The notes beneath the pieces are model-generated. The model did no database searches. It had not been told where the DNA came from and saw only the letters and a list, made by a program, of their open reading frames with translations. Below, piece by piece: positions 14,646-42,949 of a stretch of 64,000 bases of DNA. The position numbers and the translations under genes were made by a program. Source of the DNA: Clytia hemisphaerica (lineage: Eukaryota); the NCBI RefSeq assembly GCF_902728285.1, contig NW_027103826.1, positions 180,759 to 244,758 of the forward strand. Direction: 5' to 3'. The first letter of the stretch is position 1, and every line of letters starts with the position of its first letter.

Positions 14646-15023
14646 AAGACGAAATAATTACTTAACAAAATTAATTTCTTGTTTTATGTTCTACATGATG
14701 CCGAGAAACGAACGAAGCTACGGATATTGAACGGTATGAGGAACGAACGGACCACGAAAATTGAGGACTACGAGGACCGGTGAACCAGAGATTGGTTTAG
14801 GCACATGCCAGCCCACAGGTGTCATAGGTGCACAGTGAGGCATTACAATCATTGATTATATACGTATTGGCCAGTTCGCTGGTGTCAAAGGTACACAGTG
14901 AGGCAAGATGAACGATATCAACGGTTAGAGATTGAATCAGGTATGAGAGATTAAAAATTTTATTCCCCCTTTTTCTTTCGTTACTTGTAGAATCCCTTAT
15001 GTTCGGAATTTGGCGAAAATTAG

Positions 15024-19765: not shown

Positions 19766-19996
19766 TTAAACAAAGTCTGGGGTCGTTTTGAGGACATACA
19801 CCATAGAATTTTCACTAGCCGCTAGAAATATTTTCTCGGATGGATGAGCGGCTAAGCATGTATATCTTTGAGCACGATGGTTGAAAAATCCATAAATATT
19901 CTCCCCAGTCTCGGTGTCAAAAATCCTCAAAGTCCCATCTAATGATACTGTCATGACTTGACTTTCCTCGTTTAAAAATGTAGCATCCATGCACAA
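19766..19996 (-). CDS. NWD1-like: WD40-repeat exon (…VSLDGTLRIFDTETGENIYGFFNHRAQRYTCLAAHPSEKIFLAASENSMVYVL). It is the likely 3'-most recognised exon of the NWD-like gene.
   Basis: Canonical WD40 blade with a D-[GT]-x-[LI]-[RK]-[IL]-[FW]-D signature. Confidence 0.55.
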   Translation of the reverse strand: MCMDATFLNEESQVMTVSLDGTLRIFDTETGENIYGFFNHRAQRYTCLAAHPSEKIFLAASENSMVYVLKTTPDFV

Positions 19997-22900
19997 GCGA
20001 GTGTGTCCTAGAGTTTGAGAAGATTGGAAAGATTATAAATTTTGGAAGTCAGGAAGTGGTCATAAGTTATCTACTAGAGGGGGGGGATTTTTCCAAAAAT
20101 TTGAAAAAAATCTCTTACCATCCCTCTAGACATGTCCAAAAATTTTTCGAACCCCCCTTAACCAAGCCAAAAGATTTTCGCACCCTCCCCCCTAAGAAAA
20201 AATCTTAGATACTCTCCCCCCCCCTCGTGCAATCCTGACCTATTGTTCATAAGTTAGTCCTTTGATTTTTGTGTGTTTTTTTCGGGAAATTTTATCGTTG
20301 TGAGTGTTATAACTAAAGGCGCAACCGGTTTGTGCTGACAGAGAACATTTTAAATGTTTAACCCTCTCAATTTGCTAAAACCTGAAAATTTTTGTTGTTA
20401 AAAAGCCTATCACACAAATAAATTTAAAAATGACTACAGTGCAGGGACAATGCACCTCCTAGGTGACCCTAAGTGTATACTGTTAGTGCGGAAGTTATTG
20501 AAAACAAGACTAAAATTGAGAAATTGAGATTTATGCAGCATAAAAAGACAAATAATAGATTATGATGATTGGTGTAAAGATTTAAAACTTTTCAAAAAAG
20601 GCTCTGATAAATGGTTAAAAAAGACTTCATTTTTGAATCAACCTGGTGTCAAAAAGATTTCGCACCCCCTCTTCCTAAGGATTGCAAAAAACTTTCGCAT
20701 CCCCCCCCCTAAGGATGGCAAAAAATTTTCGAACCCCCCCTGAAATCCTCTTACTCCCTCTAGTAGATTTTATGGCGGCTCCCTAAACTTCACAAGTATC
20801 GGCCTTGCCTCACAGCCCTTTTGGAATTTCCTTCCACAGTGGGGATGAAAGTTTTTACCGAAATCCCAATGGCAATAGAAATTTTATTGTTCTCAGGCTA
20901 AAACTGTCCTATGGGGATGGTTTTTGATTGTGTACATTTTCAGACTTTTCTGTAAGAAAAAAAAGTTGATCAGCGTGAAAAATGGTAAAATCTAATAAAC
21001 ACTGGACTTAAGAAACTTTACCTTTGTATTCACAAATATCTTTTTCAGATTCCGGATCATATTTAAAGAAATTGTGGTTACTGTCATTGCCATTATATAA
21101 AAGACAGTTATTTGAAAAGAACCCGCCGATTATTTTGTAAGCGCGTTGAACGTAATATTTGATTGTTCCATTGGTCAAATCAAACGCCATGAAACCTTGA
21201 AATAAAATGAAAAGAAAGATATTTTGAATGATGTTTTGAGCATTATGTAAATTAGACAAGAGTCTACTTCTGTCTGAACTTTGCTTTTTGATGATTTTGA
21301 TGATTCTGAGTCCAGAAAAGTAGACTAGAGGAACCGACATCTTGATTTCTTTCATTTTCGTGTTCAAAACTACAACAAAACAACAAAACAATAAAATGTG
21401 GGGGGCGTACGGTATTTCGGAATTGCGGAAATCGACCCTTTTTTCTTCGGAAATTTGGTGAAAAATTAGTCAAAACGACAAAAAATACCCATAAAATCGG
21501 TATCGGAATTGCAAGTATTCTTTTACGGAATTTCGGAAATTTTAGCAAAATTACTTGGTATTTCGGAAATAGCAAACCCCGTACGCCCCCCCCCCTAAAA
21601 TATGTTCTAAAACCCAACAAAGTATACAAACCCCATAAAAATATCTCCCAAATTAAAAAAAGTGGGTCTATTAAGCTTTTTTTACATGCATGTAAAATTC
21701 TAATTTAGACCTTACGGAAAATCGTTCGTAAAGCTATCTTTTGGGAATCTCCCAGACTTTAAGTAGAGTTTTTGTTGATTAAAGCTTTTTTCACATGCAC
21801 GTAAAATTTTACTTTAGACCTTACGGAAAATCGTTCATAAGGCTGTCTTTTGGGAATTTCCCCGACATTCTGTAGAGTTTTTGTTGATTAAGTAGGGTCT
21901 TACGTGACTTTTCCCTCCGTTTAAAACTTTTTAAGCGTTAGCAAACTTTACATAAGGCCTTAAAACACCACGTAAGCTTAGGGAAATTCCCCACCCTTTA
22001 AGGTCTTAAGTAAAAATTTACGTACATATGAAAAAAGCTTTACGGAATTCACACATGAAAAATTAGTCAAAACAAGGAAAATTCCCATAAAATCGGTATC
22101 GGAATTGCAAGTATTTTTTTACGGAATTTCGGAAATTTTAGCAAAATTATTTGGTATTTTGGAAATAGCAAACCCCGTACCCCCCCCTAAAATATGTTCT
22201 AAAACCCAACAAAGTATACAAACCCCATAAAAATACCTTCCAAATTAAAAAAAAGTGGGTCTATTAGTCATGGTTTTCTGTTTATTTTTTCTCCAAACCA
22301 CCTCAAACAAAGCCAAAATATCAAGCTGGCCAAATTACACTAGCCAATTTATCAGCGCTATCCAGTTTATCAAAAAGCACTAAGAAGTCCCGGGCTATTT
22401 GTAAATACATCCCTTTCTCACAGACCTACTGGGAACTCTTTCCACTGGAAAAATTGTCCAAAATATCGTTCCGGTGGGGAATTTTTCTCCAATTTTTGTC
22501 CCCACTGATAATAATCAAATAAACTAATTCTCACTGCACAATATTATGCTATTTTTCACATCCCCACTGAATTTTCTGACTTGAAAACAAAAGCATTAAA
22601 ATCCCCAGCCATAAAAAATATGGGACTATCGATCCCTATCGAGTTTCAGTCAATTATTTTTATCCCACTGGCTGAAAAAAATCCTACCGGGTCTGTGAGA
22701 AGGAGATCTGTAAATGATCTTGGTAAATATTGGAAAAAGTTCTAGAATTCCGAAGTCAAATTGGAATGATAACAAAAATGAATTTTTTCAACTTCTCTTG
22801 AAGAGAAAGCAGCACATCTGCATTTCCCCATACTGCATAAAATTGAATAAAAAATATCTGGCAACAAATACACAAATTCTATGAAATAACTTTGCTTACC

Positions 22901-25900
22901 ATTAAAATATCCTGACACGCAACCTAAATCTCCAGTTTTATTGATAGCACAAGCATACATTGGTTTACTGAACCCTTGGAGCAACATTTTTTCCTTGAAT
23001 ATTTTCAAATCTGATACGTCCAATACCTTAAAAACATAAGGCTATTTTGATATTTTGCTGTTTCTGTAATCCTTTATATAGGCGAAGTGAGATACCCTGC
23101 AAAATGTCTGAGGGAGTGCAGACGTTTATGACATATTCATTATCTTGTAATAAAACAAAGACAATAATTACAGTGTCGTTAAAACTGCTCTCATCCATAA
23201 ATTTTGCAGGGTATCTCAAAACACACGAATCCTATGAAATAGGCTAATTGTAATTGTATAGGGTACCTTTGCTACACCTAAGTATTCTTGATTCCCAGTA
23301 ACTATCAAATTTGAGCCAGCGTCATCTAAATCCATGAATGATAAACAGGTATTATCTTCCGGTGTAAAATATTCATACTCTGAAACCAGTTCTAATTCGG
23401 CAACTTTGAAACACGCAATTTTTGTTGTGTTACTGAAGATAATCACATGTGTACTGTCTGGGTGGAGGACGCCTCGTAGTTCAGTGCTCTTTGCTGCTTC
23501 TCTGGATAACTTCAACTCAAGAGTAGCTGTATCGTACAGTCTAAATAAAGAAAATTTGTTTTTTAGAGATTTGTATTTCACTCAGTTTATTTTTTGCTTT
23601 CGAGTCAAACCATAAGATGTTTTTAACATCGATTCTACTATCGTAGCAAAAGCTAAATTAAGCATGCAAGATCCAAAATTTTTCATAAAGGCAATTTTGA
23701 CATCAGAATTTCAGTGAGCAAGCATATATACGGCACACGAAAACAAAAATTTTCCTTTTGGTGACAAAAGTTTTATGAAAAAGGGTCACAAAATCACATA
23801 AAAGCACATCACAAAAATTTGCTAAAATGAAGCATTTTTCGAATATGATTCGCAATTCTTATAGGTATGATAAAAACAATTTTAAGTGCAGATAGTATTT
23901 TAGCCTACATGAATGCAAATAATCTCTCTCTATTTACTGAAAATAATATTACCTCAACCAGCCTTCTGCAAGGGTTAAAAATTGAGTTCCATCTTTAGTG
24001 AAAGCACACCATCTAACAATTTCTTCCACCATTTTCGGGACTGTATTTTTCTTTGATTCTTTTGTCACTGGTAATTGCCACAGAATGGTCTCATATAACT
24101 CACTTGACAAAACCTTAAAAGACAAGTAGTCAGCTGAACAACATTTCTTCTTGCATATTTTAGGGGTATTTTGTGGAAACAATAGTTTTTCGCCAGAATT
24201 AAAATTATAAGAACTATATTCAAGATGACAACTTTCCTGTCAGTTTGAATGATAAATTTTGAAGGTGCTGGTTGAAATTTTCACAGTATTAACTTGATGT
24301 ACTTTTTCATTGATTTCTAAAAAGATTTCACTGAAATATTGTGAAGGCATTTCGAGGCACTTTATTAATTTTTGAGTTCTTTCAGTCCCAGCCATTTTGT
24401 GCTTGTTTAAATTTCTTATTGTTGATCTTTTCTTTACAATGAGTTTATAATACAAGTGTATTATCAAGGGCATATCATTAATGTCTAAAACGCACTGAGA
24501 AGTAAGTATTACGACAAACCATCAAAATTTACCATTAAAGATGCTACATTACTTATTTCTTGATCAACAAATAGTCATCAAATACGACAGAGATAGAACA
24601 ACAGAAATTCAGATGTTATCATTCCAGCCGCGGCTTTCTTATACTATGGCTGAACAACATTTCTTCTTGCGGGAGGCCAATGAAATTCATGAGCCCATTT
24701 CTTATTAACACGTCAATTTTTTCAACAATTTTCAAATTTTCAAATTCTACTGTCTATTTTTTAGACTTGAAACAGGTGACCTAGCCTAACGGACAAATAG
24801 ATTTTATTAGTTATATTTTTGCAATAAAAGCTCTGACTATTCATTCATTTTGGATTAGTCTAATTTTAGATACGAGGTAAATTCTCTACCTGATTTTTTC
24901 CAGGGACCAGTGACATATTTTGGATGCTAGCTGCGTGACCTTTCATTTCTTTAAGTAGCTCACCGGCTGAAAGTAGATAAAAAATTAAATGACTTTTATG
25001 GAGCGCTGTTATGCGCAGTTTTGTAATTATTGCGCAGTTTTGTAATTTTTGAGCTGCGCACTTTTGTAATCAAGTGACTGCACACTTTTGTAATTTTAAA
25101 ATAAATCGGCTGAATTATTTTCAAAGTTCTTTTTTACAAAATGAATTAACTTTTTGAAAAGTATACATGATGTGTGACTATTTAGAATAATTCATTTCAA
25201 AATTCCGAGTTGAAAGAGTTATAACTCGGCATTACGTTTTTAAGTTTTATTAATAAATTTATCAATTTGTTCGGAACAACTCGGATTAACTTAATCAAAA
25301 TAGTGTCAATTATATAGCGTTAATCAGTATCAGTACTCTTTTCAAGAGAATGAATGACTGTTTTGCAATGTATTCATACTATGCAACCACTTATATAAGT
25401 TATGTCGAATTTAAGAGTTGAAAGAGTTATAACTCGACATTACATTTTTGGCATAATTCTTTAATGAGCCAAAAAGCTGCGCAGAAATTACAAAACTGCG
25501 CATAACAAGCGCAACATCCAGTGTAGACCGACACTAATGCTGAAATTTTTACTGCATTGGGTACAAATTCTTTTCTGATCTAATATGTTTAAAGCATGAT
25601 CTCCATTTAAGGAGAACTGATGATAGTTGGGCGTGCGACGTCACACGGCAAAATGAGCATTGAAGCTAGGTAAGTTTAGATAAAAAACGACTTGGCTGAA
25701 AGCATTTTATTTAGCGCCCTCTCCCCAACATTTTCTTGCCCTCCCAAGCACCTCATATTTTAACAAACACCCGCTCGCCCTCTGATTCTCGCCCTGTCAC
25801 ATTATTAAATAACAGACTAGTTTGCTAGTATAGCCTAACCAATACCCAATTATTTTCATAAATTCGGTGTTAGGATATTGACGTAATGCTTTTGGTTATG

Positions 25901-28900
25901 GTTATCCAAATATGAGACTTAAGGATACATTTTACATCTAGCAACCGTAGCATGAAGGTAGAACCCCCGTCTACGGTTCAAGAGATTGTGGGCTGATATC
26001 AGTAGCGTAGTGGATCGATGACTAAAATTCGGACAAACTGGGGAGGCAATTTTATAAGATTTTGATTTTGGCGCCCCTTATGAAAATTAAATATCTTTTA
26101 AAGAATTACGCGAGCTAAGCGAACACAAAAATTTGGGGGTATTTTCTCTTATTTTGGCCATATATAAGTTTAAAAAGAGCGTACGGCCGCCGAAATTAGT
26201 AATTAGAGGCATTTTTTTACGCCCTTTTTATTTCAGCCCCCCCCCCCGCTGGGGGAGGGGGCCACCACGCTACTGGTTCATATCCTAGCTAGGTAGAAGA
26301 CCTCAAGAGATGGATCAAAAGTAAGTGAAGAAATTCAGGAAAAGGATTGACGCCCTCCCCTTCCAGTTGACAGCTAAAAAAAAGAGGGGAACCTTCGGGT
26401 CTCCCTCGACTGCAGTCACAAACTTTTTATGTTACATTTCATACTTACATATGTTAAAGATTCTCAGTTCATTTCGACAAAATTGTATTGTTAGGATTCT
26501 CTCACCGATATCATCATAACACACAGACTTGTGTCCTCTATAAAGAGGTGATTTAATGTCAATGTCATCATTATCTTCAATTTGGTTACAAAGCTCCACA
26601 GATGACTTGGTTACTGACCATTCTCTTATGATCTATATGAAAAATGAATTCGAAGATTTCTATATATCTATGGACCAAGTTTTTTCCACCATCTTTGAAA
26701 TGGTACCCTAATAAGCGCTACTCGATGCGGGTCAATTTGTAATTCAATTTAAAAAAAATTTCAACGACATTGAGGAATGCTCCCATTAGGGTGCCACTTT
26801 CAAGAATCTCCTATCAAAGATTAGTGATCTTAAGGATCTAGGACTTTTGAAGAGTACGGCAGGATTGAACAAAAAGAAAGCCCTTTGGGATTGATATCTC
26901 GATCGCAGCTTGATTCTATTCTTTTCATTATCAATTTTCTCGTGAGAATAGTTAATTTTAATAGGTAATTAATGGACGTTTTCAAATCTGAAGACAACTT
27001 GAAAGTTCTGTTTTGACATCGTCTTCAGGACAAAGACAGTAAAAGAAGAGAACAATAGTTTTAAATGATATGAATCCCTTAAGAATTATATCGTTATTTT
27101 TTACAAAAACTTTCCTGGATTTCAAATTTGCTCATGTGATAATAAATCTAGATAAAATCGGATAACATTTGACATTTGATTTTAAGATTTACTTCACGTC
27201 CTTATTCAAGTTGCAGTCCTAGATGCTTCAGGTCACTATTTGCTGGTTGGCAAGGGTGAAGAAGCTCTGTAAGTTTTTATGATTCGACTAAAACACAATG
27301 AGGCTCATCAATACAAAAATGGATATGGGAGAAAATGTCTGAAGCTTCCAAAAACAGCGACGTCTTTATATAACTTCAGAATCTAAAAAATGTGAGAGAA
27401 ACTTCGGCATCTTAACTCTGGCATGGTCCAACTTCTCAGGCAAGAATAGGAGCTGGCTTGACTTGGATCTATTGTGACGATTATTGGACAAATTATTCAT
27501 GAATTACATACATAGTCGTCTGATCCAGAGATGATTTTGTTTTCTGTTGGATGAAATGAAAGACAATGTATGACGTCACAATCACATGTAGCCGAACAAA
27601 GTTGATTCCCTGTAAAAAAATTGGAAAAAAATGAAATGTTGTGCAACATATTGGATATTATCAAGACCTCTTAAAATCGACAAATCCTTATCGGTAGAAG
27701 ATTCGTCAGTGAAAAAATTCGTCGGCAAAAACTATTTGTCGGCAAATCATGTCGTCGTCAAGAAAATATTTATTTATTTTCTATTGACGTAACCTCATAA
27801 ACCTAGTATCCCACTGGGAAAATTTTATCATATAAAAAACACACCTTGGAGATCCCATCCAATTATATCACCACCCAAATGAGCTGAGAAAATCATATTT
27901 AAACGTTCATTATAGCAACAATCAAACCCAGGTTTTTCAGTACACCATTTTTTGACGATTTTCAATGAATTGTTATCAAGAACTGTAATCCAGGTAGCTA
28001 TGTATCTTTCATTTGAATCCACATGTGCATGGATGTTAATTTCATTCCAACAAGCTAGAAGGTTATCACCAGTGCAAGTAAGCCATGAAGTACACAAATC
28101 CTTAGATAAATCAATAAAAATCATTTAACGTATAGATATCCTATCAATTCAGTATTGGAAATAGCAAAACATACTGTAGATGCACAGAGTTTACAGCCGG
28201 CGATGGGCCAGTAGTTAGAGAAAACTAGCCAGAAACTTAAATTTTGTACATAGGAGATATAAAGAAAAAACACTACGGTCAGATCATTTATGTACCCTTA
28301 AATGATCTGACCGTAGTGTTTTTTCTTTATATGCCACACTTATTCCTTAATTACTCATGATGTAATTACTTAAATTCATTTTTTCAAAAGCAGTTTGTTC
28401 TTAAACATGTCAAAGAAAACATAAGGTTTTATCTTCAAATTCTGAAATTGATTTTTCATTATGACCAGAGCCCTTAAGCGCATACGAAATGATTATAATG
28501 ATGATTAAAATGGCGCCTAAAATGAGCTTGGAGACATACCTTTTCAAAAATTTGAACAACATCTTCCAAAGTACCTTTGGAAATGTTGTATCTTGATATT
28601 GTTCCGACAACACCAAGTATCAAAGTTTTGCCATCCGATGAAATGGAATCAGCAGATCCCATGTCCTTGAAATCGTGAATTACTTCTCCACTATTCATAT
28701 CAAATACAGCTGTGAATTTACCAGTAATAGCAACAATATCTCTCTTCGGGTTCACTGAAACACAAGAGACTCCTCCCCTACGGTATTTAACAAGCATCGA
28801 GTCCCCTTCCATAGGGATGTTGGTCCAATATAAAGGGTAAGCCTCCCCTTTCACTAAGGGTTCCATCCCTAGGGAAAGTGTATCTTTAGTAACGAATGAA

Positions 28901-31900
28901 TTGGGTAATTGTGTTACAGCCATGTTGAGGCTAAAATTCGGCAATTCCTGAATGTAGGGTGTGTAGAGCTGAACAAAAGAAGCCCATTGTTTGAGAGCCT
29001 CTAAGTCTTCTGTATCTTTGAGAGTAGCCAAAGCAACTGAGTAATCCTCGCTTAAGCTTTGCTGTTGCTTGGCAACAATGCGGTTTTTAACGAAGTAAAG
29101 ATTTCTTAGACTTATTTTCAAGCTTTCCAAAGGTGTATCTTGGTTTTGGTGAGCTTTGAGCTGATGGTAGACCAGCTGCTCTAAGATGTTATCAAAATAC
29201 GCTGGAGGTTCCTCTTGAGGTGTTTCACAACATTGCTTGATGATAATGTCTTGGAAAAAATCTCTCATACACGCGTGTGTTTCCTGCTCGAAGGATTCCG
29301 TCATAAATTTTTGGCGCACAGCATATTTGAGCTGGTCGTGGAAGAATCGAAGATAGCCACCTCCCCCTAAAATATAGCATCTTTTTTTAGAATACAGCAA
29401 AAGCTCCATAGCTGAAATCCTGCTAACACACAACATTTTTGCAACGTTCATCTAACGTTATATGGACATTGTGAACATTAGATAAATGTTGAAAAAAGTG
29501 CTATGCCAGCTGGGAAAGCCTATCAAGCAGAGTCTTCGATCACACAAAAAAACAAAATTCTAATCTGTCTATCACGTCATTGAACTAAACACATTTCTCA
29601 TCAATCATGTATCATACCTCTTGAGATCACCATGATATCACGCCAAAAAATGCCCTATTACGCCACACCACGTAAACCATTGGAGAGGGGCTAATATCTC
29701 TAGCCACTAATCCTTTCTTGATTCAAAACAAACATTTATCAACATAGTCTCTACAAACTACAAACTAAGTTTTCATCGCTCTGACAACCTTTAGTTTTCC
29801 GAGCGTGTTCCAATTATTGAACCTTTCTACTGGCAATTGTTTATCCTATTATTAACAATTATCTTTAGGTATCTTCCTAATTGCCAGTACTTCCATTACT
29901 TACCGGCTGCTAAGAAATGAGAAATCGAATCATAAATCCTTGGGAAATTTGCATCGTACAAAAATTGTCCATCGCCTTTTTCTCTTTGTTCTTTGTAATG
30001 CAGAAGGTCATTTATTTGGTTCTCTAGCAAGCCATCTTTTGAAACACAGATTAATCCTGCTACGTCATGCACGAATAATTTGCCGTAAGTTATTGACCAA
30101 TCGTCTAAGAGGAAGCTAAACAGATCTGTAATGCTGTTTGGTAGATTCTCAATATACTGTGTCACCTTTTCGAAAATTCCAAACTTCCTCAAAGCCTCGC
30201 AAGCAGCAATTAAGTACAACGGACTTTGACTCTTAGACAATATTATCTCCATTTGGTTGCCAACTTTCGAGTCTTCATTTTCGGTTAGCTTCTTGTTGAA
30301 TCTTGCCAATGTTTCTCTGACCATTTCTTTCAAGTCTTCATGACTCATGTTTTCAACAGGAAGACATTCTGCGTCAGGAGAAACATCGAGTGCATTTTGG
30401 AAGGTCCCATTTTCTTGATTCAATGTCGAGATCATGAATTTGAGATTCTTGGGAGCATCTTTTAACGGTAGCCACCACATATCCCAAGCGCCTATATAAA
30501 AGGGATTTATGGGAATTTTAGATTTTTCAGGGCTTTCTAGGTGATAATTCAATGCATTTTTGGGATATTGTAACATTACTGGACCCTCAAAAAATAGTGT
30601 TTAATGAATCCCCGATTTGAGTCTCTCAAAATTCTTCTAAAACGTTCACACTTAAATATTTCTAGCTTTGAACTTAAGTAGCTAAGACTTTTTGCAACTG
30701 CAGTTGAGGGCGATCCGAGGGCTCCCTTTTTGTTAATTGTCTATCCAAAGGAAGACAATTAAGACAAATCTTGTCCCTGGCTTTCTCTATTTACCCTAGA
30801 CCCCTCTCTTTTACTAGTTACTAAACCTCAAGCAGAGAGACATTAACAAACATTCTGGGGTTTTCGGTCCATACCAAGGTTACCTCGGCAGAGATATACC
30901 CCATAAAACATAAAACATACCTAGCCCGCTGTGGAATTGATTGACAGCATCAATAATAATAACGAATAATTTATCTGGATATTGATTTGCACTTTCGATC
31001 AGAAATTCGTGATGTTCTTGTTTCAATTCTGAAGCATTTCCAGTAAATTCTTTGGACAATTTGGTTTCACCCCTATCTCGTCTGTATTTTCTCAAATTCA
31101 TTTGAAGTCTTCGCATCATTCCTGAAAGAAAAATTCTTGACCTTAAAAATATTACCTCGCTCGAATATTGATCCATAGATGTTCATGTAAAAATAAACAA
31201 GCCTTGGCTCAACTTTTTAGTCTAAAGCAAGAAGGATATCACTAAATACTCCTTTCTAGGATAGTATCGTTTTATTCTACTCACAAATTAGGGAAATAAT
31301 TCGAAACGGGGCATAATAATTATTATTTTGAAAAAGTTGTGATATTAGTTTGAAAAACACTATACCAAGTAAAGGTGAGCCTAAGGCTAGACTACTAAAC
31401 CACGTCGTTGTATTTCGCTGCAACTTAATCTTGCAATGAGCTCTATGTCTATATGTTCACTGAATACAATGTCAATTTCATTGTCAATGTCTTTCCAAAC
31501 CACTCGCCCGCGGAAATTTCTATTTTTATAAGAACTCTTTATAGCACTATTCCCGCATTCCTGTGTCCAAGGAAAGACAGACGCTTGCTAATCTAACTTA
31601 AGGCGAATGTTTTGCTAGTCTTTGTTCCCGTGCGAACAGGATGAGCTGAAAACGAGCACCTTACCTTCTAAAAGACTCGAACTAGGGCAAGAATCAACAG
31701 CGTGGATAAACAAAAAGTCGTTTGTCTTTTCTACTCGACTCATACAATCGACTGCAATTTTTGCCAACAAACCAGATTTTCCACACCCCGGTTCACCATG
31801 TAAAATCAGTGTGTTTGGGTAACCGCTAGTAAGACAGTGTTGATATGCTTTGTTAACAAGACCTTTACGACCAACAAATGTAGCAGCCTTTAATTTTACG

Positions 31901-32527
31901 GCGTTTCTATGTTGTATTGATTCTAGTGCGTAACTATAGAAAAAATGATAAAAATAAAAATTATTTGAATTGGAATGAATTGTGTTTTTAAATTCTCTTG
32001 TAAGTATCTCGATATATTTTGCAGGGGAACCAAAAAAGTAACTTTTTATATTATCCAATTAAATGTTGGAAAGATATTCACGAGTGGAATATTACCAAAT
32101 TGAAAACAACAAAAAAGTGCAAAATGAAGATGAAAAATGAAGAAGAAAAAAATAAACTTCGTGTAGAGTGTGCTGTGGTTTAAATTTAGAAGATTATAAC
32201 TATTTATCAAGGAATTTAGCATTCGAAAAATTATCAAAATTAGAAATTATTAGAAAAAAAACTTTTAGACTGTAAAAAATGAGGAGTGTATATTTAATTC
32301 GATCCAAAGAAAACACGTACTTGTCAACTTGTGTCGTATCAATCGAAGAATAATTCGATAAAATTGACTCCATTAAATCTTCCTCGACCTGTTTTTCAAA
32401 ATCTTCCAATTTCTTCACGTAACCAACTCCAAAACTTCTGGCATTTTCTCTTTTTAAGGTTATTTTTGCGTCACAATATTGAGCGCTGTACTCTGACCAT
32501 TTTATCTCTGGATGACCCTGGATAAAC
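19766..32527 (-). CDS. NWD1-like: NACHT- and WD40-repeat-domain gene (NWD1-like STAND NTPase), multi-exon. Order on the minus strand is N-terminal helical region, NACHT with Walker A and B, helical domain, then at least 7 WD40-repeat exons. Further 5' exons probably lie upstream of 32527.
   Basis: Walker A LILHGEPGCGKSGLLAKIA (compare NWD1 LVLFGPPGIGKTALMCKLA). Walker B DKLFVIIIDAVNQF (compare NWD1 SLVLLLDAMDDL). The N-terminal exon aligns to NWD1 ...KELGEQFVVRANHQVL. Downstream exons carry WD40 signatures (GH...D, LRIFD, WD). Confidence 0.75.
20065..20770. mobile_element. MITE-like element with terminal inverted repeats tctactagagggg / ccctctagtaga and internal degenerate tandem motif aaaa(t)tttcgcacccccctaagga.
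   Basis: The terminal inverted repeats and the internal repeats are visible by direct reading. Confidence 0.5.
21008..21200 (-). CDS. NWD1-like: NWD-like WD40 exon. Only the 3' part of ORF 21008..21391 is coding; the upstream part overlaps a MITE.
   Basis: …MAFDLTNGTIKYYVQRAYKIIGGFFSNNCLLYNGNDSNHNFFKYDPESEKDICEYKGK. Confidence 0.35.
21395..21600. mobile_element. MITE with G-rich terminal inverted repeats (ggggggcgtacgg … ccgtacgccccc) and internal cggtatttcgg(a/t) motifs. The same family recurs at 22050-22200 and 62385-62790.
   Basis: Inverted termini and a shared internal motif are seen at three loci. Confidence 0.55.
22385..22730. mobile_element. MITE with terminal inverted repeats catccctttctcacagacc / ggtctgtgagaaggagatc. 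A second family member lies at 41455-41745.
   Basis: The two copies are about 85% identical over about 300 bp (…ctcactg.a.aatattatgctattttt…cccactggctg.aaaaa…). Confidence 0.6.
22742..23023 (-). CDS. NWD1-like: NWD-like WD40 exon (ORF-bounded, approximate).
   Basis: Open frame …MYACAINKTGDLGCVSGYFNGKQSYF… on the same strand, colinear with the flanking WD40 exons. Confidence 0.4.
   Translation of the reverse strand: MDVSDLKIFKEKMLLQGFSKPMYACAINKTGDLGCVSGYFNGKQSYFIEFVYLLPDIFYSILCSMGKCRCAAFSSREVEKIHFCYHSNLTSEF
23216..23581 (-). CDS. NWD1-like: NWD-like WD40 exon (ORF-bounded, approximate).
   Basis: …CLSFMDLDDAGSNLIVTGNQEYLGVAKV… and …RLYDTATLELKL… match the WD40 β-propeller blade pattern. Confidence 0.45.
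   Translation of the reverse strand: MKYKSLKNKFSLFRLYDTATLELKLSREAAKSTELRGVLHPDSTHVIIFSNTTKIACFKVAELELVSEYEYFTPEDNTCLSFMDLDDAGSNLIVTGNQEYLGVAKVPYTITISLFHRIRVF
24995..25510. mobile_element. MITE/foldback element with terminal inverted repeats gcgctgttatgcgcagttttgtaatt … aattacaaaactgcgcataacaagcgc and an inverted internal duplication (…gagttgaaagagttataactcg(g/a)cattac…).
   Basis: Perfect ~26-bp terminal inverted repeats are seen in the sequence. Confidence 0.6.
27828..28124 (-). CDS. NWD1-like: NWD-like WD40 exon (ORF-bounded, approximate).
   Basis: Open frame …FSAHLGGDIIGWDLQ… carries the WD dipeptide. Confidence 0.45.
   Translation of the reverse strand: MIFIDLSKDLCTSWLTCTGDNLLACWNEINIHAHVDSNERYIATWITVLDNNSLKIVKKWCTEKPGFDCCYNERLNMIFSAHLGGDIIGWDLQGVFFI
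28530..29451 (-). CDS. NWD1-like: NWD-like large exon carrying the HETHD-like region and the first WD40 repeats (…GGVSCVSVNPKRDIVAITGKFTAVFDMNSGEVIHDFKDMGSADSISSDGKTLILGVVGTISRYNISKGTLEDVVQIFEK). The donor GTATGT lies at 28524-28529. The 5' end is approximate.
   Basis: Long open frame with WD-repeat-like periodicity, ending exactly at a consensus donor. Confidence 0.55.
29896..30576 (-). CDS. NWD1-like: NWD-like helical/winged-helix region exon. The ORF-bounded range is given; true splice ends are slightly inside it.
   Basis: 226-aa open frame with no repeats, in colinear position between the NACHT exons and the WD40 exons. Confidence 0.5.
   Translation of the reverse strand: MLQYPKNALNYHLESPEKSKIPINPFYIGAWDMWWLPLKDAPKNLKFMISTLNQENGTFQNALDVSPDAECLPVENMSHEDLKEMVRETLARFNKKLTENEDSKVGNQMEIILSKSQSPLYLIAACEALRKFGIFEKVTQYIENLPNSITDLFSFLLDDWSITYGKLFVHDVAGLICVSKDGLLENQINDLLHYKEQREKGDGQFLYDANFPRIYDSISHFLAAGK
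30921..31121 (-). CDS. NWD1-like: NWD-like NACHT exon with Walker B (…HEFLIESANQYPDKLFVIIIDAVNQFHSG).
   Basis: Acceptor is tttttctttcag, donor is GTATGT. A hydrophobic stretch is followed by an acidic D in hhhhDa context. Confidence 0.7.
31665..31933 (-). CDS. NWD1-like: NWD-like NACHT exon with the Walker A P-loop (…FVGRKGLVNKAYQHCLTSGYPNTLILHGEPGCGKSGLLAKIAVDCMSRVEK…).
   Basis: Acceptor is ttttttctatag, donor is GTAAGG. Carries the GxxGxGKS motif. Confidence 0.75.
32321..32527 (-). CDS. NWD1-like: NWD-like exon encoding FIQGHPEIKWSEYSAQYCDAKITLKRENARSFGVGYVKKLEDFEKQVEEDLMESILSNYSSIDTTQVD.
   Basis: Strong acceptor gattctttttttag, donor GTACGT. The phase-2 end joins the phase-1 start of the next exon, giving ...VDN|YALE. 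Confidence 0.65.
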
Positions 32528-33922
32528 CTAAAAAAAGAATCAACAAATTTGAAGATTTGGATTTCAGAGCTAACAATATATGTTATGTATATGAAGGGGA
32601 GAAAGTGCCTATTTTGCAACATTAAAAAAGAGCGACAAATTTCACCATCCCAACCCCGACCGAAAGTTAAGAGCGAGGACTTAAAACAATCTGGAAATTA
32701 TGTAAAAATACCCACAAAATGGTAAAAAAAAACGAACTTTCTAAGAACAATTTTAGGCTTCAAACTTAAAAAATTAAGAACATCAGAAGGTTTAAAAGGT
32801 TTTGGTATTCTTATAAAAAAGGTTTACACCGAGGGCAGGGGGGGGGGCAAATCACTCGAAAAATGGTGTGCGAGATTTATGATTTACTTTTGATTTATGA
32901 TTTATTTTTGATTTATGATTTATTTTAGATTTACTTTTGATTTATGAATTATTTTTTATTTCTGATTTATTTCTGATTTATTTTTGATTTATGATTTATT
33001 TATGATTTATTTTTGAATTATTTTAGATTTATCTCTAATTTATGAATAGGAGTAATTTTATGGATGCATTTTTTCAAATTACAACGAACTGATAATCAAA
33101 ATAAGTGTCAAAATTTTTTAAAAAGTTGAAAAGTCAATTTTTTTCGAAAGATTTTTTATTTATTTTTTATTTATTTCTGATTTATTTTTGATTTATGATT
33201 TATTTATGATTTATTTTTGAATTATTTTAGATTTATCTCTAATTTATGAATAGGAGTAATTTTATGGAAGCATTTTTTCAAATTACAACGAACTGATAAT
33301 CAAAATAAGTGCCAAAAAATTTAAAAAGTTGAAAAGTCAATTTTTTTCGAAAGGTTTTTTATTTATTTTTTATTTATTTTTTATTTTTGATTTATTTTTG
33401 ATTCATAAAATTGCGTACGAAATTTATTTTAGTGATTTGCCCCTCGGTTTACGCAGGCTACCTCACAATACTTACTCGTTCAAAGCATCTCTATCCTTTT
33501 TATAAGCAGAAGCATTTTTATTCACGTTGTATTGGAATTTCAATTGCAGATCTTCCATCTCTTTTTCCACATACTCAAATTCAAAAATCCATCGAAATTC
33601 TTCTGGGAATTTTACACCTTAAAAATGAAGGAAATATGTTCCGAGATTTTACCGATCTTTTTCCTCGGAAAAATATTACGGAAAAATCTCGAAACGGGTA
33701 AAATATCGAGTTTATCGTCAAGCTGTAAACGTTTCGAATTTTAGAAGGAAGAAATGATTGTTGAAGAATTGATGCTTCAAAGTCAAGGAAGTATTTTTGT
33801 TGAGAATTGGGAGAGAACTTTTATAAAGATCGCTCGTCATATGGTTTAATACAAGACACAAGAAGCCGGAGCGGCCAGCTGACGTGGCAATAACCGAATG
33901 TCGTTCGTAACGGGTTCCTTAA

Positions 33923-34622
33923 GGGCTCTGACCATAGTGAATTTTTCAAAATTGCCGTGTTTAAAATGTGTTTTCTGACTGATGTAACCAACAAAACTAT
34001 GGCATGTTATACATTTTCTGTTAGACAAACTATTCCTGAATCTGAAAACTCAAAAATTGCATTGAAAAAATTTGATGAAGAAGAAAATGAAGACTTTTGC
34101 GAGGAAGAGTATTTCAACTTTGAAGAGCTTAGTTTCGGCGAAGAAAAAACATTTTGAAAAAATTTTCGCAGTAGATGGTGTATCTTTTACCGAACAAAAT
34201 ACCGAAAATTTTTGTAAATGCTTTTTTGTCTCGAAATCTTCAAAATAGTGATTCATCAATTTTTCATATGGATTTTTCTTAAAAATACATTCATAACTTT
34301 TGACACATCTTTTTAGAAAAATTTTCCGCAAAATTTAAAATAGTTCAATTCTTTGCGGAAAGTTTGAAAAAAGTTCGAAACAAAAAGGTTAATTACCTAT
34401 TAAAACTTAGCACTTTTTATAAAAGAAGGTGATGCAACATATTATTAACGTCTTTTTAAAGCTCATAACGTCATTTTTGCAATTAGGTTCTTAATTACTC
34501 TTAAGGGGTTTGATTAAAAAGCAATTTATAAAGGCGATTCTTTGTTAAAAGTGTTAAAGAATTTAAAACATAACTTTTATGTTCAGATACTAAAATCGAT
34601 TTTCTGACTATGGTCAGAGCCC
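33923..34622 (+). mobile_element. About 700-bp MITE, copy 1, with terminal inverted repeats (aa)gggctctgaccatag … ctatggtcagagccc(tt) flanked by TTAA. It carries a conserved 66-aa acidic ORF at 33957..34157.
   Basis: About 96% identical to copy 2 at 42155-42849 over its entire length. TTAA lies at both junctions (33919-22, 34623-26). Confidence 0.75.
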
Positions 34623-34731
34623 TTAAGTGACGCAAAGAAATTTCCTTCCCATCCTCCACTCTGAGCTTCTATTTTCGTACTGCTAAGTTTTGAAAGTTTT
34701 TGATGCATTTCCCAAAATTTCGAAACTTTTG

Positions 34732-34815
34732 CCGCTGATGGGATTCGAACCCACTATATACAAAGTATCTATGTTCAGAACGCCAGCGCCTTAACCACTC
34801 GGCCATCGAATCACA
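34732..34815 (-). ncRNA. tRNA-like sequence with a class-II-type D-arm (GGCCGAGTGGTTAAGGCG) and canonical T-arm (GTGGGTTCGAATCCCAT). Probably a tRNA pseudogene or SINE head.
   Basis: The D and T arms are canonical, but the 5' segment (GATTCGA) cannot pair with the 3' segment (CAGCGGC) as an acceptor stem, and the anticodon arm is irregular. Confidence 0.3.
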
Positions 34816-36299: not shown

Positions 36300-36460
36300 C
36301 TTTTGGCTCATTAGGTAAATCCATCATATTTCTTTTGTAGAAAAAAACAGTGGGCGATTTGCGTTTGATTTTGCCAGATTGCGAAGCTTGGATTGCTTCT
36401 AGAGATGTGATGCTGACTTTTTTGCCGTAACTGTCGAATCTTTCAATCCAGTCGTATAAT
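36300..36460 (-). CDS. Candidate internal coding exon (LYDWIERFDSYGKKVSITSLEAIQASQSGKIKRKSPTVFFYKRNMMDLPNEPK) with strong splice sites on both sides.
   Basis: Acceptor ccgattttcag and donor GTGAGT flank a 161-nt open frame. The other two frames contain stops. No homology was recognised. Confidence 0.35.
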
Positions 36461-38916
36461 CTGAAAATCGGAATATCTTGAGAAATCAGAGGTTACCAAA
36501 ATAACCAAAATACAGTACGAGGCTGCGCTTATTCAATCTCTAGATTTTAATAAACAGAGTCGATACTTTCAGATTTTACTATAATGCACATGATACAATC
36601 GAATTAGAATGAAAAGGGACACCATATTGGCATATTTTTCTTTCTGATACGATTGTATCATGTCAATCAGTAAAATCAAGAAGTGTTGTAAATGACTTTG
36701 ACATTGCTGAAGTTGAGAGAGTCAGATGACCGTGGACCTCAAGAAAGTAGTCGAAAGACTATTCAAAAGTCCTAAATTATCATCCGCATAAAATATCGAC
36801 TCTGTCCATCAACATCTAGAGAATAAACGAGCGGTTTCGGTAATGATAATTTTATGATGGACATGATATAATCGTATCAGAAACAAACATATGCTCATAT
36901 GCGTCATACCTTGTTTACTCTGAACAAACAATACACCTTTTCGACCGTAGTCGCGCGATCAGGCGCGTGTCACTTAATTATTTAATCATCCCCCTAAACT
37001 CGATCCAATCCTTTTTTCTATTTTGACACATTTTTCTATTGTCTATAGGTGCGAAAAAAGGACTTGAAGGGTTTTAGTGGGATAAAACGGACAAAAGAAT
37101 CCCGCGTGGTAATTGGCGGCTCCGTTCGAAAAGGTGTATTAGTAGAATTTATATCACCGTCACGTGCGCGATATGTACTAGTTATCGCATGACTTCGAGT
37201 GCAATACGAGAAATATTTTACGAGTTCCGAGATTTTTACGTAATATTTTTCCGAGCCTTTAAGCGAGGAAAAATATCAGTAAAATCTCGGAACGAGTAAA
37301 ATATCGAGTATTGCACGAGAAGTCGTGTGATAACTAATTTATTGTCGACTCAAAAAATTGTCCTCTTTTTGTTTTAAAACTTACTTCCGCCCTCTTCTGC
37401 TTCTGTGTAGTTTCGAATGTTTTTATTCGAAAATCTAATTCGAACGCTAGATTCGAACAAAAACATTCGATAACTTCCCGCCGAAAATATTCACACAAAA
37501 ACAAAACTTTTTCGATCATTTTCGATCCAGAAGTTTTGTTTTGAAGAGTTGCAGATATTTCAGAGATGTATTTGAAAGTTTCTAGATTGATAATTCAAAA
37601 TGCAGATGATGTACAGTATTGTTTCGATAGAGGACAAACCCTCCATCACTGGATTAATCAGATTGATAACATTCAGTCTTTTTCTATGTTTTTGTTTCGA
37701 TGACATGGCCATGGGAAAGAATAGCAGAGGAAAGGAGTCCCACGATGGAAATGTATGCTTGTAATAATGGTTAAAGAACAACATTTTTTCAACAGCAATA
37801 CAATTTGGATACTTTTTTGATTATCTTCAAGCTCTAAATGTTTCGAATTTTAGAAGGAAGATGTAATGATTGTTGAGTTGAAAAGTCAAGGACGTATATA
37901 GTCGTAGACTACGTTGTTGTCGAGAACGAGAATTAGGAGAGAACTTTTATAAAAATCACTCGTCATTTGGTTTAATACAAGACATTTCACTTTCCTTGTT
38001 ATGTTATGTTATGGGAAATTTTATTGGCAAATATTCAAGAATCTCAAGTTTTTTTCGTATGCATTGATAAAAAACTGTTTGGTTATCACAAATTTGCCAA
38101 AAGTTGAAAATATTTGGGTCGTGTCAAGTAGTTTTATAATAATAAATTCTTAGTTCATCAGATTTGATTTTAGTGTCTTTTATGAAAGAACTCCAAAGTA
38201 AAAGTTAAACATATTTTTGTTGCGTTTTTCCCTTTGATTCCCAAGCCAGTTTCTCCTCCGAAAGTCAGTTCTTTTCGGCTGTTTTGTTTTGATTTTTCTC
38301 CCGCCGCTTACCCAGTCCCCCAAAAGTCAACGCGGTCATATTTCCAGACTAAAGAAATATGAAATATCGCAAATATCTCGATGCTCTCGACCAATCAAAA
38401 CGCTGATATGGGTCGGCAATAAGATTCTTATAGTCATTCCTCACAGGTTGATTTCAGAGAAAGCCAAACGGTTATGTACATGGTATTCTGTGCATGTCAC
38501 GCTCTGCTCTAAAGAGTCCACCCTTGTTTTTACCACACTATAAGAAAGCCGCAGCTGGAATATGTCCCGTATTGTCTTTTCAGTTAGTTGCTATCTATCT
38601 CTGTCTCCGAGCTTTATAAGAACATCAAGATTGTCAGTTTATCATCGGTTGATAATTTTTGAAATTTCTTTCTTATTTATCTTCACAAAAAGTTTTTTTA
38701 TTGCTAGATATCTTTGAATCTGTACCCAATAGAACACTTGAACTGATTTTGGACAGTTTTTCGCCAAAATTAAAATTATAAGAACTATATTCAAGATGAC
38801 AACTTTCCTGTCAGTTTGAATGATAAATTTTGAAGGTGCTGGCTTTAAATCTTCACAGAATTATCTTGATGTACTATTTCATTGATTTCTAAAAAAATTT
38901 CACTGAAATGTTGTAC

Positions 38917-39208
38917 TCTTAGGTGCCAAATAAACGGGGGGGGGGGGGTTAAAAAAGTTTTTCAAATTAAATAAACGGGGGGGACCTAATTACCGGGGGG
39001 TTGGAAAATGGACCTTTAAAAACCCTAAAAAGGGTCAAAATAGACTAAATTTAGGCTTTTTAGAGTAAAACAAGGAATTTTCCTTTTTGTAGCTGGGAAT
39101 TTTTTCAAAAATTAATAAACGGGGGGGGGGTCCTAATAAGGTCCGGGGGGTTGGAAAAAAATCGAAAAATTAACAAGCGGGGGGGGCGTTTATTTGGCAC
39201 CTAAGAGT
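38917..39208. mobile_element. About 290-bp MITE with terminal inverted repeats ctcttaggtgccaaataaacggggggg … ccccccgcttgttaa…/cgtttatttggcacctaagag, inserted with an apparent TA target duplication into a copy of another repeat.
   Basis: The empty site is seen in the paralogous repeat copy at about 24345 (gaaatattgtgaaggcatttcg), versus gaaatgttgta[MITE]taaaggcatttcg here. Confidence 0.7.
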
Positions 39209-41907
39209 AAAGGCATTTCGAGGCACTTTATTAATTTTTGAGTTCTTTCAGCCCAGCCATCTTGTGCTTGTTTAAATTTCTTAATGTTGATCTTTCCATA
39301 GAGGTATAAAGAAAGACAGGAGATGAATTTGTCGGTAATTGGTCGTTAAAGTCTTTTGATTTCTTTTATGTAATAAATCAAAAGAAATTCTAGGCTCGCC
39401 CGAAGAAATACGACTTTTTAGTAGAACTCAAGTTTGCTCTGATCTGAACATTCTTACTATCAGTATCAGCATCGAAGATTTCTAGCCTTCTAATATACGA
39501 AAATAAAATAAAGTTTAGCTCCACGAAATAAGTTTGCGTTCAATTTTGTCATCCATTAAATATTGTTTTGAAAAGATATTTTCTCCAGCCAGAAAATAAA
39601 AAGTTATGTATAAGCACACACAATTTCAGACCCAATTTGTAGACAAAAAGTCGCTGGAGGTTGTTGGAGGAAAGTATTAAGCAATAGAGTTCACCTTGAA
39701 GAAAATGTTGATCGAAAAATTTTGTCCTTTGATGAAGGATTGCAAAGTTTACAGGCCTTTTTTTAATCCAAATATTTTCTTACACCAATGTCAGAAACAA
39801 TAAATCTCGTCTCATCTTATTTCCAACACTTAAGTTAGCCAATAAGATTTCACCTATCAACAAAAGAGCTCATTAAAAATGCACGATATATGAGATTATG
39901 AGCATGCATACCTCGTAATTTTTTTAATCGTAGGGCGAGCATGGTTACAATGATCTTTCCTGCAAAATGATTTTATAATGCAAGTGTATTATCAACGGCA
40001 TATCATTAATGTCTAAAACGCACTGAGAATTTTAAGTAGTAACGACAAACCAATAAAATTTACCATTAAAGATGCTACATTACTGATTTCTTGAACAACA
40101 AATAGTCATCAAATACGACAGAGATAGAACAACAGAAATTCAGATGTTTTCATCCCAGCCGCGGCTTTCTTATACGTACTATGTTTTTACCAATATGCGT
40201 AAATTCCCAACAGGGATGTGGGCAGGAATGCTTTGTAGTTTCACAAGAGCGGTGAAGGAAAACACTATAAATCAGATTTCGCAAAGGCTCAATAAGGAGA
40301 AAAATGAATTTTCTTTTAGCAAGAGTCATGCTCTACTTACTGAGGCTGCTCAAAACCATTTTCTGGTAAAAACTTATCCTGCACCCAACCATATCGATCT
40401 GTTCGAAGTCCCAAAAACCATGGCATGTACACGATATCGTCCCGACATTTATCAATCTGATTCAAACAAGTTTTTTGGATTTCTTCGCAATTTTTGCTCT
40501 CGTCAGCTAAAACTCCCCATCGAAGATCAACTGGTATAACTCGAATGAATTTGGAAGTTAATTTTCGATTGATGCTTGGAATGACACGTTGTACCTTTGG
40601 AAAACAATTGTAAAACTTGTGATTTGCGACTAAGAACTATCGTGAAAAGCACAGGTCGAAATCATATGTCGACGCTGTGACGACCAATCCAGATTCTATT
40701 CAGCGCGCAATCAACGAAGAGAAAAGTAACCATGACGACCATCCAAGATCTTGGATGAAGTTCAAAGTTGATATTTTTATTCCAGTTGTTGAAAACACAA
40801 CTCAAAAATGTAATCGATGCTTTTTAAAAAGAGTCAATGATAACTTAAAGTCTGTCTATTAATTCGATTCAATTAAAGTGACATTTCCATAATTAAAAGT
40901 TTAGTAATTACTGTTATACATTTGGGGATCATGTAAAAGATTTCTTTTGAAAGAAACTCATTTCACTTACACTTGGAGGTTTCTGGGGAATTCGTAAATA
41001 GTTAATTGCATACTGATACAGTCTGCTAGACATTAATATGGTAATATTTGCTCTTCATCTTTGATTTTTTCTACAGTGATTAGATTGACACATGCGCGAT
41101 AAAATTTCTATTATTGGTCCTCAGAGAATGAAATATTCCCAACCTCTGATACTCAGGGTAACTAAGAACGCATAGCCCAAAGTGGGTGTACCGATTCTAT
41201 TGTGAGTATATCATATACCTACCTCATTAATTTGATGAAGTGGTCCTAGTGTTTAAAAAAACTAACAAATGATTCGTACTAGAAGAGGTGGGGTTTTTTT
41301 TCGTTTGGAATAATAATGTTAATAGCTCCTGAAATCATGGAGGTGTAAACTTTTATTTAGCTCGTTCAAAATTGAATCAATTTTCGTTATCAATAAATGT
41401 GCTAACATGAGGAGGATCTTGAGAGCCAAATTTCATTCAAATATACCAACTAGATTGCATCCCCTTCTCACAAACCCACTGCACTGGGAACCCTTCTTAC
41501 TGAAAAAATTAAAAATTATCCTCCAATTTTTTGCTCCACTGAAAATAATCAAATAAACCAATCCTCACTGTAAAATATTATGCTATTTTTTCCATCGTCA
41601 CTGAATTTACTGACTTAAAAACAAAAGAAATTAAATCCCCGGTCATAAAAATTATGGGAATATCGATCCCCATCGAGTTTCAATCCGTTATTTTTACTCC
41701 CACTGGCTGTAAAAAACCTACAGGGTCTATGAGAAGAGGGTGTTAGATTAAAAGTTAAATGGTTGTCTAGGGTTGCACATGTAGGAAAAAACCTGAACCC
41801 GAACCTGAACCTGGTTCTGAACCACTGAAAAAAGGCTAGTATGAGAAGGGTTAAGATATGATCAATATTTTCATATTTGTTCAAATTAGTTTGTTTACAT
41901 ACCAAGA

Positions 41908-42046
41908 TATCTCTTTCAGAATGTGTATCAATGAAAGTAGACGAAATGAAAAGTCGGATTTCAATCCAAGTTCCAACTTGACGTTCTTTTGCTTTCTCTT
42001 TTATTGCTTCGTGGTGAATCAAATTTTGAGATAACCATTCGTCCAA
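41908..42046 (-). CDS. Candidate 5' coding exon with a DUF4062/TIR-like motif (MDEWLSQNLIHHEAIKEKAKERQVGTWIEIRLFISSTFIDTHSERDIL). Either the first coding exon of the NWD-like gene, across a >9 kb intron, or a separate gene.
   Basis: It starts with ATG and ends at a consensus donor (CTTG|GTATGT). hFISSTFxDxxxERD is the N-terminal signature of DUF4062, the domain that precedes NACHT in NWD1/NWD2-type proteins. Downstream sequence in the same frame reads into a MITE. Confidence 0.45.
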
Positions 42047-42154
42047 TGAAATTTCTTCTACCTAGGGAACGTGTAAGGTTAAATTAACCAGGTTTTCTTT
42101 TGCACTTGATGGCCATTAAAGCATGATCAGAGTGGGTTTGCGAGCTACTTAAAA

Positions 42155-42849: not shown

Positions 42850-42949
42850 TTAAGAAAGATTGAAAGTTCTGGGTCTATGAGTAAGTCTATGAGTAATACA
42901 ATGACTTCAGACATTTGGCATCAATCATTCCTGGAAAATCTAACCTAGT

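Follow-up and report, generated by a model that had tools for sequence, protein, structure and literature searches.

The window examined here, a stretch of 64,000 nucleotides from Clytia hemisphaerica (assembly GCF_902728285.1, contig NW_027103826.1, positions 180,759 to 244,758 of the forward strand), is AT-rich at about 34% GC and eukaryotic in character, and very probably holds on its minus strand one large, apparently intact gene in which an exon at 42 kb and another at 36.3 kb belong together with a downstream series of NACHT and WD40 exons. The predicted product is a STAND/NLR-like protein of about 1475–1525 residues, laid out as a low-complexity leader that is probably N-myristoylated, a DUF4062/NIR domain (exons 1–5), a NACHT nucleoside triphosphatase (NTPase; exons 6–8), a helical domain (exon 9) and a WD40 beta-propeller region of some 600 residues (exons 9–18). 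Taken as a whole, we consider a single NIR–NACHT–WD40 sensor gene, with a mechanism based on NAD+ glycohydrolase (NADase) activity, to be the likely explanation of the sequence, while the enzymatic part of this proposal, in which the N-terminal domain would act as a NADase using Glu159, is drawn by analogy and is one that we would put somewhat short of even.

The gene model was built on homologues. A query of concatenated NACHT-region exons retrieved 19 relatives, the best eleven of which are about 50% identical and 820–1200 residues long, with several of these eleven bearing DUF4062 in addition to NACHT-type and WD40-type Pfam matches. By tblastn, the homologues match the minus strand of the window in strictly colinear order with E values of 1e-6 to 1e-79 (Table 1), an agreement between homologues and exons that lies far beyond chance. 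After fixing of the borders, the first 13 exons alone give 1136 open codons in consistent phases, and addition of the five distal exons yields an 18-exon model that runs from 42061 to a TAA stop, spans at least 22.3 kb and comprises 1473 codons without an internal stop, with AG/GT borders and matching phases for 18 out of 18 homology-backed exons. In a multiple alignment with the homologues, junctions 1–12 are ungapped and conserved, except for a gap of 2 residues where exons 3 and 4 meet; the border of exon 4 is itself ambiguous, in that another acceptor 15 nt upstream would add GVKFP. For the distal part, the WD40 exons that lie downstream in L001, a 238-kb metagenome contig carrying homologue P0003, are colinear with the window from 24017 to 19790 (tblastx), and exon 18 is 37% identical over 59 residues to the last exon of this homologue.

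A preliminary description of this DNA had proposed that the 42-kb and 36.3-kb exons join the NACHT–WD40 gene, and had kept a second DUF4062 gene as a fallback. The homologues bear out the former: they are colinear with the exons, and the N-terminal segments are each present a single time, in the right order and with splice phases that match, so that the fallback is not needed. Both Walker motifs had been correctly read on the minus strand, exons 32527–32321 and 36460–36300 had been placed to the nucleotide with their AG/GT borders, the run of WD40 exons had been followed down to 19766 (exons 10–18 and part of exon 9 are WD40-type), and the proposed length of about 22 kb agrees with ours. Revision is required at the 5′ side. 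The 42-kb exon does contain the DUF4062 hallmark peptide and a donor, but its bounds are 42061–41903 and not 42046–41908, and it starts at an acceptor instead of an ATG and is therefore not the start exon; what had been taken as a single first intron of more than 9 kb resolves into four introns between exons 1 and 5 (1308, 3880, 2697 and 948 bp), exons 2 and 4 having been overlooked.

The N-terminal domain carries the functional proposal. On the spliced model, DUF4062 (PF13271) matches residues 36–126 with 30.2 bits against a gathering threshold of 24.7 (E 5e-7). The hidden Markov model search that had been suggested for the 42-kb exon stays below threshold with the exon 1 peptide alone (13.4 bits, E 0.092), and passes only once exon 2 is joined to exon 1. 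Residues 32–202 match the crystal structure of the TIR-like NADase domain of human TEP1 (11gz_A) with E 4.8e-16 and 34% identity over 153 positions. With the numbering of 11gz_A calibrated on R908, R954 and R976, all Arg at an offset of 893, the catalytic E1008 of TEP1 aligns with E159, within VSITSLEAIQ of exon 3, and TEP1 R976 aligns with R120. Of the 43 relatives with a residue in the catalytic column, 36 have Glu there, this Glu and the RYGW motif are strictly conserved between the window protein and the homologues close to it, and all invariant family residues are kept. As judged from alignment and homologue models, the domain is spread over exons 1–5, some 10 kb, with its hairpin and last helix in exon 5, and it has the TIR-like/nucleoside-deoxyribosyltransferase-like alpha/beta fold. 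Its testable defining features thus being present, the predicted protein is a member of the DUF4062/NIR family.

For the central and C-terminal regions, the spliced model scores 30.6 bits against NACHT (PF05729; threshold 26.7), in line with the expectation of the preliminary description and with Walker A and Walker B intact, 33.5 bits against NPHP3_N (threshold 24.8), 25.2 bits against NB-ARC (threshold 23.5) and 46.6 bits against WD40 (threshold 27), while many other beta-propeller families match as well, each under its own threshold. With the testable defining features of NACHT proteins found in its predicted sequence, the window protein is also a member of that family. The structural model of homologue P0015, covering NIR and NACHT (predicted local distance difference test score 89.9), matches the NTPase modules of Dark, Apaf-1, CED-4, RPP1 and Avs3 in Foldseek. 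The PADLOC defense models gave P-loop-level matches only, and a phmmer search of the NACHT–helical region against PDB gave only marginal matches to Apaf-1 (E 0.055).

DUF4062, since renamed NIR or "TIR-like", is a NAD+ glycohydrolase that depends on a conserved Glu; its activity has been found in bacterial defense proteins and in human TEP1, and it is the effector of bacterial defense systems including Avs2, Swarozyc, Vulcan and Vesta (10.64898/2026.05.01.722283; 10.64898/2026.09.04.749371). Most eukaryotic copies are N-terminal in NLR-like proteins, with NWD1, NWD2, TEP1, TTC41 and, marginally, NPHP3 as the mammalian carriers, and the catalytic Glu corresponds to E1008 in TEP1, E108 in PsAvs2 and E97 in KpSwz; human TEP1 is an active NADase, the specific activity of which climbs with concentration (10.64898/2026.05.01.722283; 10.64898/2026.09.04.749371).

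With TEP1 the window protein shares, besides the aligned E159 and R120, the motifs (F)ISSTF.D…ERD, DLRWGV and RYG(W/Y), and in both a NACHT NTPase and after it WD40 repeats come straight behind an NIR domain (residues ~886–1113 of TEP1, PDB 11gz, homologous by sequence to the N-terminal domain found here). The two differ at the N-terminus, where TROVE and vWA domains precede the NIR domain of TEP1, a component of the vault and telomerase particles: neither domain has a Pfam match in the spliced model, the NIR domain has no more than about 85 residues ahead of it when a candidate exon 0 (see below) is counted in, and this short leader is predicted to be probably lipidated. The pocket residues R908 and R954 of TEP1 are likewise not conserved. 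The bacterial NIR STAND proteins (PsAvs2) and Swarozyc resemble the window protein in combining an NIR NADase effector with a STAND NTPase and a C-terminal repeat sensor; their conserved Glu is required for NAD+ depletion, and the homologue NTPase model matches that of Avs3 as well. Their sensors, however, are TPR (tetratricopeptide repeat)-like and recognize phage terminase or portal, whereas the window protein has a WD40 propeller and is encoded by an intron-rich eukaryotic gene. Apaf-1, Dark, CED-4 and RPP1 have the same NTPase fold (Foldseek probability 1.0 with the homologue model), Apaf-1 and Dark share the WD40 sensor, RPP1 shares an N-terminal TIR-type enzyme domain, and the helical domain of the window protein has weak APAF1_C similarity; the effector is DUF4062/NIR, however, and not a CARD or a canonical TIR domain, and sequence similarity to Apaf-1 is, as noted, marginal.

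The designation of the gene as NWD1/NWD2-type in the preliminary description is apt with respect to architecture, as the order of DUF4062, NACHT, helical domain and C-terminal WD40 and the size of about 1500 residues are similar, but the matches do not establish orthology with NWD1 or NWD2. At best, on exon 8, the winged-helix model HTH_NWD1 (PF25469) scores 14.3 bits (threshold 27; E 0.039); it is absent from the full spliced model at E ≤ 0.01 and does not belong to the 25 families that 13 close homologues match most frequently. No NWD1 or NWD2 sequence is among the search matches, an absence that says little since the word-based prefilter may miss such sequences. We accordingly use the likeness to NWD1 and NWD2 for architecture only.

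What the DNA itself shows is how the gene is built, which domains it encodes and that the catalytic residue is there; the mechanism that we propose is drawn by analogy with Apaf-1, the bacterial Avs proteins and TIR-NLRs. In this proposal the WD40 propellers would hold the protein auto-inhibited until a presumed ligand binds the WD40 region, nucleotide-dependent oligomerization of the NACHT domain would bring the N-terminal domains together, and the clustered NIR domains would hydrolyze NAD+ via Glu159, lowering NAD+ and releasing ADP-ribose, with a putative role in immunity. The lipid anchor, if exon 0 is real, would put NAD+ hydrolysis at the membrane.

A number of points weigh against this reading. 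The structure predictions are those of homologues P0015 and P0025, taken as proxies for the window protein, and a Foldseek search of the isolated N-terminal domain against PDB gave no significant match. The active-site Arg908 of TEP1 corresponds to Ile44, in a column that is variable across the family. Exon 14 has an ambiguous acceptor (24149 or about 24236), which falls next to a repeat copy or within it. No ATG occurs anywhere in the frame of exon 1 (the codon at 42046 is TTG), and exon 0, at 44484–44329, is only a candidate for the start exon, one that we favor by a modest margin over even. Splicing and expression of the model, finally, are predictions from the sequence.

The explanation that best survives next to that of a NADase sensor retains the entire architecture and takes the DUF4062 domain as a non-catalytic interaction or scaffold module, as has been proposed for mouse Nwd1, with neither a NADase nor an immune role. 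It can point to human NWD1, NWD2 and NPHP3, purified at full length, for which no NADase activity was detectable in vitro (10.64898/2026.05.01.722283), to the N-terminal region of mouse Nwd1, which binds Paics and promotes purinosome assembly (PMC7186558), and to the Ile at the position of TEP1 R908. Strict retention of the Glu and of RYGW is, however, as expected for an enzyme, and full-length STAND proteins are normally auto-inhibited, so that the in vitro negatives of NWD1 and NWD2 are weak evidence; we regard a scaffold function as rather unlikely.

A decaying or unexpressed copy, in which the start of exon 1 would have been lost, transposons would have invaded and the open frame would be residual, appears less probable still, and we rate it as improbable. 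Most close homologues start 4–12 residues before a conserved WL motif while exon 1 is devoid of an ATG, exon 1 has a transposon 90 bp upstream of it, and exon 14 is bordered by a repeat. Set against this are the 1473 open codons over 18 exons with all splice borders canonical, the presence of all invariant family residues, the good acceptor of exon 1, and the existence of a fitting candidate start exon farther upstream, with an MGxxxS start of a kind seen repeatedly in the family.

Exon 1 is to be read as internal because an in-frame TAG (42064–42062) forms part of its acceptor, cccTAG/GTA (ccttacacgttcccTAG/GTA), and because its frame has no ATG; the acceptor is preceded by a branch-point-like CTTAC and a pyrimidine tract, and at the other end the peptide FISSTFIDTHSERD (41950–41909) is followed by a GTATGT donor after 41903. 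Lacking an ATG, exon 1 needs an upstream partner ending in phase 0. A scan for phase-0 candidates in the 8.8 kb upstream of exon 1 found candidate exon 0 as the sole long ATG-initiated open reading frame (ORF) with a good phase-0 donor. Its ATG is followed by MGSIVSSNKKKCQSALLNPGESLSDRRFTNTGSSSNNHQQTGEELTAPANQP, and the peptide, which reads MGSIVSSNKKKCQ…ANQP, opens with an N-myristoylation-type MGxxxS (MGSIVSS…); MGxxx[ST] ORFs of at least 50 codons number four in the whole window on both strands (128 kb). About 270 bp upstream of candidate exon 0 there is a perfect 129-bp × 1.8 repeat (array 44750–44986). Family members with long leaders often start with MG[CSG]xx[ST], as in MGCGAS, MGSGNS, MGGGAS and MGCNQS, and include P0021, P0029, P0034, P0042, P0043 and P0063. 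Such starts are canonical N-myristoylation signals, and Cys3, often present, could be palmitoylated. These leader sequences suggest that membrane anchoring is recurrent among eukaryote-type DUF4062 proteins with long leaders.

Two adjacent genes, a DUF4062-only gene (42–33.5 kb) and a NACHT–WD40 gene starting at or near 32527, are very improbable: many database matches are indeed short DUF4062-only proteins and introns of 2.7–3.9 kb separate the pieces, but the short matches come from contigs of ~1–3 kb and are mostly truncated gene calls, exon 5 starts mid-codon behind a tttttttAG acceptor in the very phase that exon 4 leaves and encodes the last hairpin and helix of the TIR-like domain, which would thereby be cut in two, and full-length homologues hold all segments in one continuous ORF.

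The single NIR–NACHT–WD40 gene differs from its relatives in intron content. For the N-terminal region, the named relatives that come closest are protist proteins, those of Fabomonas tropica (38%), Salpingoeca macrocollata (33%) and Reticulomyxa filosa (31%), and the closest relatives overall are metagenome sequences. At the P0003 locus of L001 a single 3.4-kb exon covers the first 1132 residues, with WD40 exons downstream, and the metagenome homologues (L001 10001–18417; L002 241–3693) have their ~1130 N-terminal residues in one uninterrupted exon, whereas the window gene has 12 introns in the region that these relatives encode in one exon (42061–24890). The homologue proteins end at …IPGE because in L001 further WD40 exons lie downstream of the 3.4-kb exon, and the intron after …PGKNQ of exon 13 is at the same position as the end of that exon (…IPGE / …IIPGE). 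This comparison of gene structures suggests that introns have been gained or lost on a large scale within the family.

Table 1. Exons of the predicted minus-strand gene, with tblastn matches of homologues, and transposable elements in and near it (positions in the window).
Feature	Position	Strand	tblastn match	Content and remarks
Candidate exon 0	44329–44484	−		ATG in AAAATGG Kozak context; 52 codons; phase-0 GTACGC donor
Exon 1	41903–42061	−	42046–41900 (E 1e-13 to 1e-10)	Leader and strand A, helix A of DUF4062/NIR domain (…EIRLFISSTFIDTHSERDIL)
Exon 2	40341–40594	−	40594–40340 (74% identity, E 2e-38)	NIR core, VQRVIPSINRK…VDLRWGV…RTDRYGWVQ; phase 0 in, 2 out
Exon 3	36300–36460	−	36456–36319	NIR segment VSITSLEAIQ with predicted catalytic E159 (codon 36399–36397)
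Exon 4	33476–33602	−	33606–33475 (E 1e-9)	EEFRWIFEFEY…KKDRDALN
Exon 5	32321–32527	−	32526–32317	C-terminal beta-hairpin and last helix of NIR domain (…KRENARSFGVGYVKKLEDFEKQVEEDL…), from alignment and homologue-model secondary structure
Exon 6	31665–31933	−	31935–31666	NACHT start; Walker A GEPGCGKS (31797–31774)
Exon 7	30921–31121	−	31128–30901	NACHT; Walker B LFVIIIDA (30969–30946)
Exon 8	29904–30491	−	30510–29902 (E 1e-70 to 1e-79)	Remaining NACHT NTPase and winged-helix-like region
Exon 9	28540–29366	−	29367–28573	Helical domain (weak APAF1_C similarity) and first WD40-like blades
Exon 10	27845–28100	−	28088–27846	WD40-type
Exon 11	27512–27609	−	27571–27515	WD40 repeat HCLSFHPTENKIISGSDD; Pfam WD40 match, residues 1028–1055
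Exon 12	26449–26632	−	26629–26453	WD40-type
Exon 13	24890–24966	−		Ends …SLVPGKNQ
Exon 14	23953–24149	−		WD40-type (…ILWQLP…VRWCAFTKDGTQFLTLAEGWL); colinear tblastx match to L001
Exon 15	23267–23540	−		WD40-type
Exon 16	22900–23026	−		WD40-type
Exon 17	21022–21195	−		WD40-type
Exon 18	19766–20007	−		Last WD40 repeats and TAA stop (19768–19766); beta-propeller Pfam matches, residues 1364–1468
710-bp element	33918–34627			Intron 3; perfect 21-nt terminal inverted repeats, TTAA at both flanks
Second copy of ~710-bp element	42150–42857			Upstream of exon 1, inside presumed intron 0
1421-bp repeat element	38755–40175			Intron 2; holds a nested 296-bp miniature inverted-repeat transposable element (38914–39209) with perfect 23-nt inverted repeats
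461-bp element	24184–24644			Intron 13; internally deleted copy of the 1421-bp element

The introns between exons 1 and 5 had fairly been described as filled with miniature inverted-repeat transposable elements (MITEs), several short inverted-repeat elements being found in them, but the segmental duplication reported alongside is in fact two copies of a ~710-bp TTAA-flanked transposon, 92% identical between stretches 33921–34627 and 42153–42854, with a weaker fragment at 28346–28490. This element is a non-autonomous TTAA-flanked terminal-inverted-repeat DNA transposon; TTAA alone would suggest a superfamily such as piggyBac. Further short inverted-repeat elements and nested copies occur in introns 2, 3 and 13, and of the 22.3-kb span about 6.5 kb has matches elsewhere in the window. 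Beside the exon 14 acceptor (region 24136–24670), a 21-nt string, CAAGAAGAAATGTTGTTCAGC, flanks the 461-bp element on both sides: one copy is the 3′ end of an ORF at 24753–24622, and the string recurs beyond the element at 24155, where the frame of this downstream copy continues into conserved sequence. The arrangement would result either from duplication of part of the exon 14 border on insertion or from exonization of element-derived sequence. The ORF at 24753–24622, which is similar to part of the L001 homologue, was weighed as a possible additional exon between exons 13 and 14, but was rejected as it has no in-phase join, and a weak tblastx match at 24352–24326 was discarded as lying within the repeat. 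Intron 9 contains, between exons 9 and 10, a 76-bp near-perfect palindrome (28257–28332; 92% complementary), probably a MITE of very small size or a hairpin element.

The remainder of the window holds other genes and repeats. Importin-7/8-like exons are found at 369–7148 on the minus strand, the concatenated peptides of which share only ~35% identity with arthropod importin-7 and 31% with a colponemid protein. At 11662–15824 on the plus strand lies a DIRS-type retroelement with a 250-residue gag-like ORF, a 523-residue ORF for reverse transcriptase and RNase H and a 266-residue tyrosine recombinase ORF (Phage_integrase). A GC-rich island (0.41–0.47 versus a background of 0.34) at 50936–53913, minus strand, contains an 862-residue ORF with RVT_1 (E 1e-9) and is probably a recently inserted retroelement. 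A single 359-residue ORF at 60820–61899 on the plus strand encodes a ligand-binding domain of the class-C G-protein-coupled receptor type (ANF_receptor, E 7e-31) and probably represents one exon of a gene for a metabotropic-glutamate/CaSR-like receptor. A satellite-like tandem array of 37-bp and 171-bp units occupies 45988–46687 and accounts for the strong GC/AT skew at 46–48 kb. Rfam and tRNA scans of the window gave no matches.

The kind of protein described here, DUF4062–NACHT–WD40 with a NADase domain, has already been reported in preprints of 2026, and the result is a well-supported annotation and not a new principle. The model is complete and homology-checked, for a long, transposon-riddled gene of a sort that is easily split or cut short by automatic annotation. 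Follow-up is warranted by the intact catalytic site, the probable myristoylated leader and the 18–19 exons set against the single exon with which relatives encode the first ~1130 residues. More speculatively, and with little confidence, the window protein may belong to a lipid-anchored (N-myristoylated/palmitoylated) NIR–NACHT–WD40 clade of membrane-associated sensors that deplete NAD+ when activated, one that would be separate from NWD1, NWD2 and TEP1 and would include proteins of protists (Fabomonas) and of metagenome eukaryotes; if so, this clade would be a eukaryotic counterpart of bacterial NIR-Avs immunity, and the 12 introns against the 3.4-kb exon of the relatives would reflect gain or loss of introns on a large scale among its members. 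Eukaryotic DUF4062/NIR–NLR proteins have only just been recognized as likely NADases, and with its intact catalytic site and probable lipid anchor the Clytia protein is a reasonable candidate on which to ask whether such proteins signal through NAD+ depletion outside the vault particle.

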